A DNA stretch of 24,578 nucleotides from Candidatus Sulfobium sp. (GTDB taxonomy: Bacteria > Nitrospirota > Thermodesulfovibrionia > Thermodesulfovibrionales > UBA6898), in the NCBI GenBank assembly GCA_037380845.1, contig JARRRI010000073.1, positions 1 to 24,578 of the forward strand, in the 5' to 3' direction. The notes under the pieces were generated by a model. The model searched no databases. It had not been told where the DNA came from and worked only from the letters and a program-made list of their open reading frames with translations. How positions within the stretch are numbered: position 1 is the stretch's first letter; every line of letters begins with the position of its first letter. Made by a program: the position numbers and the translations under genes. Below are positions 19,078-23,182 of this stretch, piece by piece.

Positions 19078-21036
19078 GTGAACAGGCTCGCCGGGGAAAG
19101 GTCTCCATATCTCAGTCACGCCGCGTCCCAGGAAATCGACTGGTATCCGTGGTCTCAGGAGGCATTCGACGAGGCGAAAAAGCAGAACAAGCCTGTATTC
19201 ATGAGCAGCGGCGCCGTATGGTGTCACTGGTGTCATGTAATGGCGAAGGAATGTTTTGAAAACGAAGAGATTGCCCGGATGCTCAATGAGAGTTTCATCA
19301 GCGTGAAGCTTGACAGGGACGAGAGGCCCGACATAGACAAGCGGTATCAACGCGCGGTGGCCGCAATGGGGCAGGGCAGCGGCTGGCCCCTCAGCGTATT
19401 CCTGACCCCCGAGAAGAAACCCTTTTTCGGGGGTACCTACTTCCCTCCGGAGGACCACGTCGGCAGGCCCGGGTTCAAGACGGTGCTCAGGAGCGTCATC
19501 GAATTCTACAGGTCCAGGGGAGAGGAGGTTTCTGAATACGGCGAAAGACTTCTGGATTCCCTGAGACCCGGACCGGGCATGGAGGGGGAAATCCCGGCCT
19601 CGCTCCTCGATGAAGCGGAGAAGGCTGTTATGGGGCAGTTCGACGCCACAAACGGGGGTTTCGGAAAGTCGCCTAAGTTCCCGATGCCGGGGGCCCTGGA
19701 ATTCCTGATGCTCAGGTATTTTTCCGGCCGCGACGCGAAAACCGGGGAGGCGGCAAGAAAGACTCTGGAGGCAATGGCAAAGGGAGGATTCCATGACCAG
19801 CTGGGGGGCGGTTTCCACAGATACTCTGTCGACGAGGCATGGACGGTCCCCCACTTCGAAAAAATGGCGGACGACAACGCCTGGCTTCTGAGAAATTACA
19901 TTTGTGGCTACTTCCTCTTCGAGGACGATTATTTCAGGAGGGTGGCCGAGGGAACGATCGACTTTGTCAAAGAGGTGCTCTCGGACCCCGGGGGAGGGTT
20001 TTACGCCAGCCAGGACGCCGACGTGACAGTGGATGATGAAGGCGGATATTTCATCTGGACCGACGAAGAATTCAGGGGCGTCCTCGACGACGAGGAATAC
20101 AAGGTGTTGTCGCTGCACCTCTTCCACGAAAGAGCGGCCGCCCATCACGATCTGTCGAAAAGGGTCCTCCTGATCGCCACGGATCCGGCCGAGATTGCGG
20201 AGCGGACGGGCATTGAGCCGAGAAGGGTTGCGAAGATTATCAATAGCGGCATGGACAAATTGCTTGAGGAGAGGAACCGCAGACCGCAGCCCTTCGTGGA
20301 CAAGACCTTTTACACTTCCCTGAACGGGATGATGATCTCATCTTTTCTTCTGGCTTACCGCTGTCTCGGCCGTGATGACGTGAAGGGGTTTGCTCTCAGG
20401 AGTCTCGACCGTATACTCGCTGAATACTTCGACGGTGAAAGGCTTCTCCATACTGACGGTGTTACAGCGACACTGGACGACTACGTATATCTTGTCGAGT
20501 CCCTGTTATCGGCCTACGAAGTTACGGGAGACGATTCCTATTCAGCCCGGGCGGCCCGGGCCATGGGATCGTGTATCGGGTCGTTCTGGGACGCCGGTTC
20601 CGGGGGGTTTTTCGATACCGGCGAGGATGTGCTCGGTGTGCGGCTCAAATCGTTTGAGGACATCCCTCATCCGTCTCCAAACGCGCTGGCCGTTGTGCAA
20701 TTGCTGAAGTTGTATCACATGACGGGGAAAGAGAGTTACTTCAGCCTTGCCGAAAAGACACTCAGGGCCTTTTCCCGACAGGCGCGGGAAACAGGCATCC
20801 ATGCAGGATATTATTTCTGCGGCCTGGATGCGTATTACCATATGTTCAAATTGACGCTCGAGACCTCGCCCGGCAGCGACCTGGCGCGCACCGCACTGAA
20901 TTTTTTCATGCCCTATAAAGGAATTGTATACGGGGAAGACAAGAACCTCGTAACCCCTTGTCTCCCCTCGGGAGTTTGCCTCGAACCGGTCGGTGAGGCA
21001 GATGACCTCAGGCAGTTCCTGACGCGCCCGTCTTGA
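19078..21036 (+). CDS. Thioredoxin-domain protein, YyaL/SSP411 (DUF255) family
   Basis: NRLAGERSPYL, WCHWCHVM, DRDERPDID, GWPLSVFLTP, GGGFHRYSVD, PHFEKM. Confidence 0.93.
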   Translation: MNRLAGERSPYLSHAASQEIDWYPWSQEAFDEAKKQNKPVFMSSGAVWCHWCHVMAKECFENEEIARMLNESFISVKLDRDERPDIDKRYQRAVAAMGQGSGWPLSVFLTPEKKPFFGGTYFPPEDHVGRPGFKTVLRSVIEFYRSRGEEVSEYGERLLDSLRPGPGMEGEIPASLLDEAEKAVMGQFDATNGGFGKSPKFPMPGALEFLMLRYFSGRDAKTGEAARKTLEAMAKGGFHDQLGGGFHRYSVDEAWTVPHFEKMADDNAWLLRNYICGYFLFEDDYFRRVAEGTIDFVKEVLSDPGGGFYASQDADVTVDDEGGYFIWTDEEFRGVLDDEEYKVLSLHLFHERAAAHHDLSKRVLLIATDPAEIAERTGIEPRRVAKIINSGMDKLLEERNRRPQPFVDKTFYTSLNGMMISSFLLAYRCLGRDDVKGFALRSLDRILAEYFDGERLLHTDGVTATLDDYVYLVESLLSAYEVTGDDSYSARAARAMGSCIGSFWDAGSGGFFDTGEDVLGVRLKSFEDIPHPSPNALAVVQLLKLYHMTGKESYFSLAEKTLRAFSRQARETGIHAGYYFCGLDAYYHMFKLTLETSPGSDLARTALNFFMPYKGIVYGEDKNLVTPCLPSGVCLEPVGEADDLRQFLTRPS

Positions 21037-21060
21037 CTTTTCCCGCCCTGCTGATAGAAT
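21033..21060 (+). promoter_or_regulatory. sigma70 promoter upstream of the UGA-rich peptide
   Basis: TTGACT-16 bp-TAGAAT with extended TG. Confidence 0.6.
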
Positions 21061-21131
21061 GGAATCGGGTCAATATAAGGGCGGAAAGCGGTTTGTGACC
21101 GCTTTGTTGTCAGGGAAGGAGGTGAAGCAGG

Positions 21132-21299
21132 ATGAAGAAGACAGTGAGCAAAAAGGCTCTTGTCAAGGAGGCCGCTTTCTGGAGCAGCTTCAGGAACGCG
21201 GTTAAAGAAAATCCTGGCAAGATATGCCACAAGTGAAAGAGTTGAAAGAGCTGAAGTCGCCGGTCGGCGACGAAATGAGGGGGGCAGGTGGGGCGTTAA
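21132..21299 (+). CDS. Putative selenocysteine-containing RiPP precursor peptide (up to four in-frame UGA)
   Basis: AAGGAGGTGA RBS. MKKTVSKKALVKEAAFWSSFRNAVKENPGKICHKUKSUKSUSRRSATKUGGQVGR*. UGA at 21234, 21243, 21252 and 21276; first UAA at 21297. The true end may be the 3rd or 4th UGA. Confidence 0.7.
21256..21271 (+). promoter_or_regulatory. SECIS-like hairpin
   Basis: GUCGCC-GGUC-GGCGAC; loop starts 25 nt after UGA1 and 16 nt after UGA2. Confidence 0.6.
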
Positions 21300-21330
21300 T
21301 GGTGATAATTTCCGCCTCATCTGCCCTTTT
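21282..21330 (+). other. Long stem-loop (second SECIS, terminator or stability element)
   Basis: GGGCAGGUGGGGCG pairs with CGCCUCAUCUGCCC (14 bp, 2 G-U); possible apical GGUG; followed by UUUU. Confidence 0.6.
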
Positions 21331-21437
21331 GTATGAAGCGGTGTTTTTGAGGGTCTCACGGCGGGATATGTATCGTCTGTCTTTATGCCGCCATGCCCGG
21401 GTCTTTAGCCGGACATCCGTTCCGGAGTTTTAAAACA

Positions 21438-21499
21438 CCTGGATTCCCGTCCCCGGTCGCCTCTGGCGCTGCCAGAGACGGGTAAACTGCGCGGGAATG
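21438..21499. repeat. REP-like element with nested hairpin insertion
   Basis: cctggattcccg [tccccggtcgcctctggcgctgccagagacgggtaaact] gcgcgggaatg. Confidence 0.6.
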
Positions 21500-21549
21500 T
21501 GGGGACCCTTATATATGAAGCTGCAATATTTCCGATGAGGTGAACAAAG

Positions 21550-22596
21550 TTGTCGACGAACGATTCGCATGATTTTTTTATTCAGTGGCATCTGACCGAC
21601 CGCTGCAACCTCAGGTGCAGGCATTGTTACCAGCAGGGCGGCACGGCGGACGAGATGTCTCTTTCCGAAATCGGGTCAGTCGCCGGCGAGGTGGAGGAAA
21701 CGCTGAAGATCTGGGCAGACGCCTATGACATTTCCTTCACTCCCAGTTTCAATATCACCGGGGGAGAGCCTTTTCTCAGGAAGGATATCTTTGAAATACT
21801 CGCTGAGCTGACGGAGCGGGGATTTGAAATATATCTTCTTTCCAACGGAACGCTGATCGATGGCAAGAAAGCGCGCAGACTGTCGGAACTGGCGACAAAA
21901 GGCGTCCAGATAAGCATGGAGGGACCGGAACACATCCATGACGCAATCAGGGGAAGAGGCAGTTACTCCGCATCGGTGAAAGGGATTTCCCGCCTTCTTG
22001 ATGCAGGGGTGAAGGTCACGATGAATGTTACACTGTCGGGCCTCAATGTGGCTTTTTTCAGGGAGCTTGTCGCACTCGCGTCTTCTCTCGGCGTCCAGAG
22101 GCTCGGCTTTTCGAGACTCGTGCCTTCCGGCAGGGGGGCGGGGCTCCTGAACAGCATGCTGGGAAAGGAAGATGTGCGAAGCGCATATGCAGAAATATTT
22201 TCACTCTCCGCGGGGCAGGTCGAGATCGTTACAGGAGACCCCGTTGCTGCGCAGATGTCTGTTCCGCCCGGTGAGGGTGATGCGGGTGGATTTCCCGGCG
22301 GCGGCTGTGCGGCCGGCGTGTCCGGCCTGACCTTTCTCCCCGACGGTACCATAATCCCGTGCCGGAGGCTGCATGTCCCCGTCGGAAACATTCTGAAGGA
22401 CAGTCTGCGCGAGGTGTGGGCGACTTCCGGCGTGCTGGAGGCGCTGAGGGACAGGAAGAGGTACGGCGGGAAGTGCGGGACCTGCAGCAGGTGGGCGGAC
22501 TGCAGGGGATGCAGGGCCATCGCATATGCATATTCGCAGTCGGGAGGAGGGGAAGACTTCCTTTGCGAGGACCCGCAGTGCTTTATCCGGGACTGA
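21550..22596 (+). CDS. Radical SAM/SPASM domain enzyme, candidate peptide maturase
   Basis: QWHLTDRCNLRCRHCY, TGGEP, HDAIRG; SPASM GCAAG...PCRR...KCGTC..W..CRGCRA...EDPQC. GAGGTGA RBS, TTG start. Confidence 0.92.
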   Translation: MSTNDSHDFFIQWHLTDRCNLRCRHCYQQGGTADEMSLSEIGSVAGEVEETLKIWADAYDISFTPSFNITGGEPFLRKDIFEILAELTERGFEIYLLSNGTLIDGKKARRLSELATKGVQISMEGPEHIHDAIRGRGSYSASVKGISRLLDAGVKVTMNVTLSGLNVAFFRELVALASSLGVQRLGFSRLVPSGRGAGLLNSMLGKEDVRSAYAEIFSLSAGQVEIVTGDPVAAQMSVPPGEGDAGGFPGGGCAAGVSGLTFLPDGTIIPCRRLHVPVGNILKDSLREVWATSGVLEALRDRKRYGGKCGTCSRWADCRGCRAIAYAYSQSGGGEDFLCEDPQCFIRD

Positions 22597-22600
22597 CGCC

Positions 22601-23182
22601 TTGGCGGACCTGCTTGCACTTCTGGCCATCATTGTCTGGCCCGTTGTTCCGCTTTTCTGGATACCCGTTCACGGATTTCCGCAACTGTTCAGAAAACTCG
22701 GCATTCTCTCGTATGTTGTACCCTTCGTACTCTGGCTTCCCGTGGGCTATCTCATTTACCATAACAGGGACTTTCTTCTTCACTATAAGGCCGGCCTGCC
22801 GTTCTGGCTGAACATTGCCGGATTTGTTTTTCTTGGAGCGGGCTGTGGACTTCAACTCTGGACAGGCAAGCTCCTCGGACTCTGGGGACTGATGGGCCTG
22901 CCGGAGATCTCGGGCAGGGTCAGGAGCAGGCTGGTGGCCGACGGGGCCTTTGCGGTGGTCAGGCATCCGACCTATCTGTCCCACACCCTGATATTTTCCG
23001 GCGTATTCCTTATAACGGGGGTTTTAGCGGTGGGAGCCATCACAGTGGCCGACTTCATCGTGATCAACACCTTAATCATCCCCCTCGAAGAAAAGGAACT
23101 GGCCGCACGGTTTGACGGCGAATATGAAGAATACAGGAAGCGGGTACCCAGGTTCTTCCCGGGGCTGCACCGCAAACATTAA
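22601..23182 (+). CDS. Isoprenylcysteine carboxyl methyltransferase (ICMT/PEMT)-family membrane protein
   Basis: Hydrophobic helices; LVADGAFAVVRHPTY, EEKELAARF..EYEEYRKRVPRF; TTG 4 nt after the rSAM stop. Confidence 0.85.
   Translation: MADLLALLAIIVWPVVPLFWIPVHGFPQLFRKLGILSYVVPFVLWLPVGYLIYHNRDFLLHYKAGLPFWLNIAGFVFLGAGCGLQLWTGKLLGLWGLMGLPEISGRVRSRLVADGAFAVVRHPTYLSHTLIFSGVFLITGVLAVGAITVADFIVINTLIIPLEEKELAARFDGEYEEYRKRVPRFFPGLHRKH

Follow-up and report, generated by a model that had tools for sequence, protein, structure and literature searches.

Which of three closely spaced in-frame UGA codons are read as amino acids, and which one ends the peptide, is the question raised by a small gene on a contig of Candidatus Sulfobium sp. 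(phylum Nitrospirota; accession no. JARRRI010000073.1, assembly GCA_037380845.1). Positions 1–24,578 of this contig (forward strand) were analyzed and are called the window below. All three TGAs are in frame with the ATG at 21132 and are followed by a GC-rich hairpin with a GGUC loop. With a probability of roughly 0.8, judged from the sequence and its conservation, this hairpin is a minimal bacterial selenocysteine insertion sequence (SECIS) that lies in the 3′ untranslated region and would direct SelB-dependent decoding. With much the same confidence, the product of the gene is predicted to be a peptide of 40 residues, MKK...CHK-U-KS-U-KS, containing two selenocysteines (Sec, U).

After 34 codons (...NPGKICHK), the order in the window was shown to be TGA (21234), AAG AGT, TGA (21243), AAG AGC, TGA (21252) and one A, followed by the hairpin GTCGCC/GGCGAC, in which six Watson-Crick pairs enclose the 4-nt loop GGTC (Table 1). 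There are 25, 16, and 7 bases between UGA1, UGA2, and UGA3, respectively, and the first base of the loop; these spacings and the perfect 6-bp stem had been given in an earlier, sequence-only reading of this DNA, directly from the letters, and were found to be correct. RNAfold yielded the same hairpin, with −11.0 kcal/mol for the 40 nt from the third UGA on, and no other hairpin was found between UGA1 and this one in the fold; therefore, both UGAs, if decoded as Sec, must use it. Because GGUC(N)-loop hairpins whose stem has five or more pairs (G-U allowed) numbered 473 on both strands of the 3.18-Mb genome, the chance of finding one with its loop 16–37 nt after a given UGA is about 0.002, and conservation is a stronger argument for the hairpin than this estimate. 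An Rfam scan of positions 20500–22000 with E values up to 10 gave three microRNA or long non-coding RNA matches at chance level and nothing SECIS-like.

Table 1. Position of the peptide gene, its UGA codons, the hairpins and the adjacent genes in the window.
Feature	Position	Strand	Remarks
Promoter-like site, TTGACT-16 nt-TAGAAT, TG before second hexamer	21033..21060	+	10/12 consensus matches, consensus match only; upstream of peptide gene
Shine-Dalgarno sequence AAGGAGGTG	21116..21124	+	Strong; 7 nt before ATG 21132 of peptide gene
Putative selenopeptide gene, 40 codons and stop, MKKTVSKKALVKEAAFWSSFRNAVKENPGKICHK-U-KS-U-KS	21132..21254	+	Leader and C-terminal motif conserved in all homologues
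UGA1, codon 35, probably read as Sec	21234..21236	+	Last base 25 nt before loop, 19 nt before hairpin
UGA2, codon 38, probably read as Sec	21243..21245	+	16 nt before loop, 10 nt before hairpin
UGA3, predicted true stop	21252..21254	+	Third codon varies TGA/TAA/TAG among homologues; 1 nt before hairpin
SECIS-type hairpin, stem 21256–21261 with 21266–21271, loop GGUC 21262–21265	21256..21271	+	Conserved position, compensatory changes
Second long hairpin, about 18 pairs, ending UUUU; terminator- or attenuator-like	21278..21334	+	Fold; between peptide and enzyme genes
Radical SAM/SPASM enzyme, likely peptide maturase	21550..22596	+	Pfam Radical_SAM and SPASM; 295 nt downstream of peptide gene
Membrane methyltransferase, PEMT/ICMT-like	22526..23182	+	Overlaps last 70 nt of enzyme gene

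Reading of the three UGA codons

The three codons were compared in three differently collected samples, which together comprise more than 180 loci, mainly from genomes of Nitrospirota/Thermodesulfovibrionales. For the genome sample, consisting of species representatives, the search pattern allowed TGN at positions 1 and 2 and TRN at position 3; 93 stretches were obtained and 80 were fetched. Leaving out L131, an unrelated Cys-rich open reading frame (ORF) that gave the one match with Cys and whose upstream frame has no relation to the peptide, 79 loci remained. For the metagenome sample, TAA, TAG, TGA, and TGG were allowed at all three places, and the 120 loci found represented 111 distinct sequences, 109 of which were kept after two AT-rich chance matches without an open upstream frame had been left out. 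The enzyme-anchored sample consisted of the 30 loci with the best matches to the radical SAM/SPASM enzyme encoded downstream of the peptide gene among 301 genomes of the phylum, 58 of which contain the enzyme; the peptide gene was present in 28 of these loci.

Positions 1 and 2 were shown to be TGA in all loci of the genome (79/79), metagenome (109/109) and enzyme-anchored (28/28) samples. At the third position, TGA was found 38 times, TAA 37 times, and TAG four times in the genome loci; the corresponding numbers were 40, 61, and 8 in the metagenome loci and 14, 11, and 3 (counted from the DNA) in the enzyme-anchored loci. All three samples thus agree on the pattern TGA, TGA, any stop, and therefore UGA3 in the window is taken to be the stop, with the peptide ending in C-H-K-U-K-S-U-K-S. 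Among the 30 loci fetched round enzyme orthologues, one was the window itself and 22 from relatives showed 75–96% identity to positions 21116–21276; C-[H/R]-K, TGA, K-[G/S], TGA, K-S, stop was kept in all 23 of these close loci, the window's included, and similarity among the close relatives stops directly after the hairpin.

The in-frame spacing of 9 nt between UGA1 and UGA2 was invariant, and the residues that follow were found to be K-G, K-S, S-S, or N-S after UGA1 and K-S, K-T, or K-A after UGA2. Codon changes between the UGAs included AAG/AAA, AGC/AGT, and one Ser encoded by TCC. Judged by these substitutions, the codons following UGA1 and UGA2 vary as coding sequence does. This bears on the alternative that UGA1 is an ordinary stop, that the peptide consists of 34 residues ending in CHK, and that the conserved sequence after it, hairpin included, is a regulatory RNA belonging, for instance, to an attenuator of the enzyme gene. 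Such a reading agrees with the public gene calls, which end at CHK in all 17 database relatives of the peptide (17/17, all unnamed or annotated as "hypothetical protein"), with the terminator-like hairpin that follows and with the lack of Cys homologues of the peptide. However, an ordinary stop would be expected to vary like the third codon, which it does in neither the metagenome sample, with all stops allowed, nor the enzyme-anchored one. The invariant in-frame spacing and the coding-type changes between the UGAs, the TCC codon among them, speak against it as well, as does a hairpin that resembles genuine SECIS elements from this genome in loop, size and spacing (see next section), and we consider it very improbable.

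Insertions or deletions of 1–8 nt were found between the stop and the hairpin, and loop length differs by 1 nt (GGUC versus GGUCA or GGUCU); therefore, nothing beyond the third codon is likely to be translated. The frame past this codon extends for 7 to more than 30 codons and is not conserved. If, on the other hand, all three UGAs encoded Sec, the third one being served by the next hairpin, the peptide would continue to the next stop, which is codon 49 in the window. The third codon is indeed UGA in the window and in its own genus, and a second hairpin does lie downstream. This possibility is hard to reconcile with TAA or TAG as third codon in 41/79, 69/109, and 14/28 homologues of the three samples or with an unconserved frame broken by the insertions and deletions just described. 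Besides, about 41 nt separate UGA3 from the loop of the second hairpin, more than the upper limit of 37 nt in the published model (see below), and this hairpin has a U run at its end and is lacking from some homologues. We regard a third Sec as even less probable than an ordinary stop at UGA1.

The least probable alternative, with hardly any likelihood in our view, is translation of the region in the −1 frame (MPQVKELKELK...), from an ORF of its own or through frameshifting stimulated by the hairpin. An ORF in this frame (21224–21433) is open across the UGA cluster, and several substitutions are silent there too (TTG/CTG, CTG/CTA). Its ATG, however, depends on particular Ile and Val codons before the Cys and is not conserved, e.g., in L032, and no slippery heptamer is present. 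In the peptide frame, AAG to AAA and AGC to TCC leave the residue unchanged, whereas they would replace Glu by Lys and Glu by Val in the −1 frame, which is also broken by the insertions and deletions in and before the hairpin.

The comparative data thus agree with the sequence-only reading in that UGA1 and UGA2, always TGA, share one hairpin. For UGA3 it had left two options, of which the stop was upheld by the variation among TGA, TAA, and TAG, and use of the next hairpin was not, since that hairpin is missing from some homologues. No family for the peptide, whether read to CHK or through the UGAs, was found in NCBIfam (June 2026) or Pfam, and a single match to SkfF (E 0.014) was judged to be noise. 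A decayed remnant of a peptide gene was observed upstream of the enzyme gene at L163 (the same place as L301), where it reads ...PYCK, TAA, RG, TGA, KS..., the first UGA having turned into UAA; an intact copy of the peptide gene is present elsewhere in that genome.

Hairpin conservation and the bacterial SECIS model

The window and the 79 genome loci were aligned in 80 rows (alignment A1), and a hairpin of at least five pairs was found directly after the stop in 79 of them. The loops were GGUC (32), GGUCA (28), GUU (7), GUC (5), GGUCU (4), and GGA, GGGC, and GGUUA (one each); the GUU and GUC loops correspond to GGUUC and GGUCC with one more closing pair. The distance to the loop was 15–22 nt from UGA2 (16 nt, the mode, in 57/79), 24–31 nt from UGA1 and 6–13 nt from the stop. 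The metagenome set gave the same picture of the hairpin.

The core helix of five pairs was 99% paired, and changes on both sides were seen in three of these five pairs; at the closing pair, C-G was found in 46, U-A in 24, A-U in four, and U-G in four rows. Doubly changed cells numbered 43 compared to 13.6 ± 2.6 in shuffles, with none of 500 shuffles as high, a count that overstates independence because the rows are related. When the partner was moved by 1–3 columns, these slid controls gave 0–10 doubly changed cells. Together with the several pair types, the slid controls argue for a real helix at the level of sequence comparison. In a distant member of the family, L040 (C-R-K-U-S-S-U-K-S, stop TAG), the stem is unrelated (UCCCGC-AGUU-GCGGGA) and the spacing of 16 and 25 nt is the same. 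The conservation and the compensatory changes that had been proposed as a check of the hairpin were accordingly both found. At the same locus (L040:2491–2600, minus strand), UGA1 overlaps with the likely start codon ATG of the enzyme (AUGA), so that the hairpin and the last part of the peptide gene fall within the enzyme reading frame, and a second hairpin with a GGUCU loop is located 38 nt after UGA2.

According to the part of a 2026 review that describes the bacterial SECIS model (PMC13188914), the loop has 3–9 nt, the upper stem 4–16 bp and the minimum free energy is −7.5 kcal/mol or lower, a G is found at loop position 1 or 2, usually with G or U after it, and the loop lies 16–37 nt from the UGA. 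The window hairpin, with its 4-nt loop and 6-bp stem, falls within these size limits, as do the homologues (3–5 nt and 5–9 bp). The loop G was found in the GGUC of the window and in 79/79 homologous hairpins, and the energy limit was reached in the window (−11.0 kcal/mol) and, by stem-only energies, in 59/79 homologues. The spacing lies within the model for UGA1 (25 nt) and UGA2 (16 nt) and outside it for UGA3 (7 nt), which fits a role of UGA3 as the stop as far as spacing can tell. In E. coli, the minimal SECIS is described as an upper stem-loop of 17 nt that must be 11 nt from the UGA (PMC11431864, in part); UGA2 stands 10 nt from the 16-nt hairpin of the window, close to this value.

Genuine SECIS elements of the same genome were available for comparison. 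The fdhA gene (TIGR01591, 889 bits) was shown to contain GUGGCC-GGUCU-GGCCAC with the loop 18 nt after the UGA, and the gene for ArsS (TIGR04167, 420 bits) a GGUC loop 23 nt after the UGA. The hairpin of the SelD gene has a different loop; thus, the GGUC loop is common in this genome and not universal. Of the fdh and selD elements, with which a comparison was suggested by the sequence-only reading, that of fdhA is thus similar to the window hairpin and that of SelD differs in its loop. The statement in the same reading that a GGUC stands about 18 nt after the UGA of E. coli fdhF proved accurate: in the K-12 record, 18 bases separate the in-frame TGA from GGTC, which stands within GGTTGCA-GGTC-TGCACC.

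Two further candidate ORFs of the genome were observed with hairpins of this kind. A MerB-like ORF under the NCBIfam cut-offs (contig C89:53–871, minus strand; L166) contains two UGAs in frame, separated by about 195 nt; each is followed by a GGUC(U)-loop hairpin of its own, at distances of 17 and 19 nt. A zinc-ribbon-like ORF of 62 codons (contig C6:30172–30357; L168:23–208) with two CxxC pairs and no NCBIfam match has a UGA five codons before its end and a GGUCC-loop hairpin 21 nt after it. A looser scan of the genome for in-frame UGA pairs before G-loop hairpins gave 121 candidates, mostly out-of-frame TGAs in ordinary genes, and was uninformative.

The machinery for a functional SECIS, i.e., selA, selB, selC, and selD, was found complete in the same genome, with matches of 620 bits for SelA and 332 bits for SelB; the SelD gene itself carries one in-frame TGA, and the tRNA-Sec has the anticodon UCA (73 bits). 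Outside the window, a 94-nt tRNA on contig C62 (31154–31247; L009:1501–1594) scored 47.3 bits compared to the Rfam tRNA-Sec threshold of 47. It was called tRNA-Cys with anticodon GCA by ARAGORN and, by our reading, has a tRNA-Sec-like fold with an 8-bp acceptor stem; it resembles the reported "tRNA-ReC" (SelC*). According to a 2026 hydrogenase paper (PMC13582414, in part), such tRNAs insert Cys at SECIS-dependent UGA codons and are enriched in genomes with UXXU motifs, and the paper warns that UGAs may then be read as Cys. In a query with the C62 tRNA among 61 relatives, 14 genomes were matched, 13 of them relatives with 74–77% identity over most of the query or with short pieces only; no conclusion on its distribution is drawn because these matches are indistinguishable from ordinary tRNA-Sec.

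It is therefore conceivable that the hairpin is a SECIS and that SelB recodes both UGAs, but that one or both of them receive Cys from a tRNA with a Cys anticodon, giving a partly or wholly Cys-containing peptide. The C62 tRNA, above the tRNA-Sec threshold, and the reported association of such tRNAs with UXXU genomes speak for this. The canonical UCA tRNA-Sec and the complete set of selA, selB, and selD speak against it, and a plain UGY codon would suffice for Cys, yet no homologue has one. We consider this alternative unlikely, though less so than the ordinary stop at UGA1.

Several observations weigh against a SECIS that serves two Sec codons. One homologue (L077) has no hairpin, and 20/79 homologous hairpins are weaker than −7.5 kcal/mol by stem-only energies. 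UGA1 is 19 nt from the hairpin compared to the 11-nt spacer required in E. coli (PMC11431864, in part), and the spacings verified in the same genome are 17–23 nt to the loop, so that 16 and 25 nt lie just outside this small sample. No Cys-containing homologue was found in any of the samples (0/17 database proteins, all ending at CHK, and 0/79, 0/109, and 0/28 loci), and thus the usual support by Sec/Cys homologues is missing. Finally, by means of the tRNA-Sec-like GCA tRNA, Cys rather than Sec might be inserted.

If the hairpin is a SECIS, decoding may proceed as follows. With UGA1, and then UGA2 three codons later, in the A site, the hairpin would still be folded outside the mRNA entry channel and could hold SelB carrying the charged tRNA; in this way, Sec, rather than Cys, would be inserted twice, with efficient decoding at both spacings. 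Once the A site is occupied by the third in-frame stop, which is UGA in the window and UAA or UAG in many relatives, the hairpin would be 1 nt away and unwound inside the ribosome; SelB would then be without its signal, and a release factor would end the chain.

Neighboring enzyme and intergenic region

The peptide gene was found directly before the gene of the radical SAM/SPASM enzyme in 64/80 genome loci and in 28/30 enzyme-anchored loci, and all five genomes with an unlinked peptide gene encode an orthologous enzyme elsewhere (58–65% identity). The enzyme did not reach any NCBIfam equivalog cut-off; the best models were AhbD (168 bits versus 500) and SbtM (141.1 versus 350), with only profile positions 199–503 of SbtM (TIGR04082) aligned, and the PapB model gave 65 bits versus 340. 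A structure prediction of the enzyme with the peptide leader passed with a score of 0.87 (best control 0.02), a mark that was reached by 116/157 solved complexes and 2/215 mismatched pairs; it covered the 34-residue leader without the Sec core, which is to be added to the points that weigh against the proposed system. No less than 63% of contacts were common to the runs, and the predicted local distance difference test (pLDDT) of the partner was at least 71. In the predicted complex, the conserved leader helix lies on invariant enzyme residues, e.g., W55, R287, E288, and W290. The model supports binding of the peptide leader by the enzyme, and the peptide is probably a substrate of this enzyme, which would act on the Cys/Sec cluster of the 40-residue peptide; the precedents are a Se-C cross-link or a heterocycle.

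A PEMT/ICMT-like methyltransferase gene is present beside the enzyme gene in 10/30 loci and is an accessory gene retained by only some members of the family. The upstream DUF255/thioredoxin-like gene was rejected as a part of the system, being kept in only 10/80 loci. At L043 and L044, a radical SAM/SPASM paralogue with 37–41% identity is preceded by a membrane protein whose C-terminal tail contains many C-S-G-C and G/S repeats (...CSGCSSGD...); Cys-x-x-Cys tails may accordingly be substrates of related enzymes.

The fold places the second hairpin at 21278–21330 with a U run after it. By our own rule for terminator-like structures, which asks for a strong helix with four or more T immediately after it, 41/79 homologues passed; the second hairpin was not picked up by a simple terminator scan with a loop limit of 8 nt, and it is missing from homologues in which the enzyme gene begins 27–48 nt after UGA1. 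Its stem (GGCAGAUAUG...CAUAUCUGCC-like) recurs across genera, in a loose motif form in 42/80 loci, and such a recurring stem sequence is an uncommon trait for a simple terminator. When the fold was truncated, pairing of the SECIS-type hairpin's 5′ arm with the second hairpin was possible instead. The second hairpin is not needed for the SECIS reading, and most likely it sets the ratio of peptide to enzyme transcripts.

A stretch of about 65 nt (about 21433–21499), between the terminator-like hairpin and the enzyme gene, was found at six other places of the genome with 78–93% identity (contigs C44, C38, C5, C51, C71, and C4) and looks like a short dispersed repeat. Metatranscriptome contigs from four runs of three studies cover only 21116–21279 and part of the start of the enzyme gene. 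Since their likeness is only 85–99%, they stem from relatives; such sequences thus occur in RNA libraries, and transcription of the window's own locus is not implied.

Comparison with known selenocysteine systems

Like the SECIS elements of E. coli fdhF and of fdhA from the same genome, the window hairpin is a GC-rich stem-loop just 3′ of a UGA with a GGUC-type apical loop, and some members of the peptide family carry GUUGCA-GGUC-UGCAAC, almost the upper stem-loop of fdhF. In contrast to both, it lies outside the coding region directly after the stop, has no lower stem and no bulged U, and is preceded by two UGAs 9 nt apart instead of one.

With regard to the peptide and its enzyme, SbtA and SbtM (TIGR04081 and TIGR04082, "selenobacteriocin") are the closest parallel, a comparison that rests on two reviews and on NCBIfam names. 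SbtA is described as a small Sec precursor encoded beside a radical SAM/SPASM maturase (PMC11002830 and PMC13188914, both in part), with a SECIS just after the TGA, and SbtM as forming a thio(seleno)oxazole (PMC11002830, in part). The window likewise encodes a small predicted Sec peptide by a radical SAM/SPASM gene, with a SECIS-type hairpin just after the TGA. However, the peptide has no TIGR04081 match and its motif is C-x-K-U-x-x-U-K-S rather than SGUG, and the enzyme, far below the TIGR04082 cut-off, lacks the N-terminal part of that profile. The thioether-forming SPASM enzymes PapB and Tte1186, which act on Cys of a short peptide, have been reported to accept SeCys in place of Cys and to form a Se-C bond (PMC10177961, in part). 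They are SPASM enzymes like the one in the window, except that Sec was introduced synthetically there and that the enzyme in the window falls well short of the PapB model.

The peptide family was not found among the 119 selenoprotein families in the table of the 2026 review (PMC13188914), the part of that review considered here, in which SbtA is the only entry of the RiPP type (peptides that are synthesized by the ribosome and then modified post-translationally). No description of it was found in literature searches, with reference 64 and the supplements of the review outside their scope. At roughly even odds, these loci represent a widespread natural system in which one minimal, untranslated SECIS licenses two Sec insertions at different spacings and, lying so near the third codon, makes translation terminate there. 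The peptide would serve as precursor for a second family, hitherto undescribed, of genetically encoded, selenium-containing modified peptides, with a radical SAM/SPASM enzyme acting on the Cys-Sec-Sec cluster.

Gene callers cut the gene at the first UGA, and the conserved selenium peptide is consequently missing from annotations and from the curated lists checked. With a 16-nt hairpin free of coding constraint, UGAs at 10 and 19 nt and a stop 1 nt before it, the locus may serve as a natural test of the reach of SelB, and peptides with several Sec residues that require no more than a 3′ tag could be designed after it. With regard to natural products, the locus points to a second pair of a Sec-containing peptide and a radical SAM enzyme besides SbtA/SbtM.

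Bacterial selenoproteins with UXXU motifs are known from computation (PMC2398784). They include Prx-like proteins, the FmdB family, metal-binding NF041115 and Group 4 [NiFeSe] hydrogenases, in addition to "UXX-star" families (PMC13188914, Table 1). Use of a single SECIS by both UGAs of a UXXU motif has been stated as a possibility in the hydrogenase paper (PMC13582414, in part), and the small cassette described here would make it directly testable. As in the window, the two UGAs of these families stand two codons apart with room for only one downstream SECIS, and UXXU and "UXX-star" families share with it the C-terminal Sec and a SECIS partly or wholly behind the stop. The hairpin is thus of a kind already known, and the idea of a shared SECIS is not new; the cassette is a very clean instance of it. 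Whereas the UXXU families are enzyme domains with Cys relatives, the motif here ends a 40-residue leader-plus-core peptide for which no Cys form was found in the samples, and the whole SECIS-type hairpin is predicted to be untranslated, which leaves its sequence free of coding constraint.

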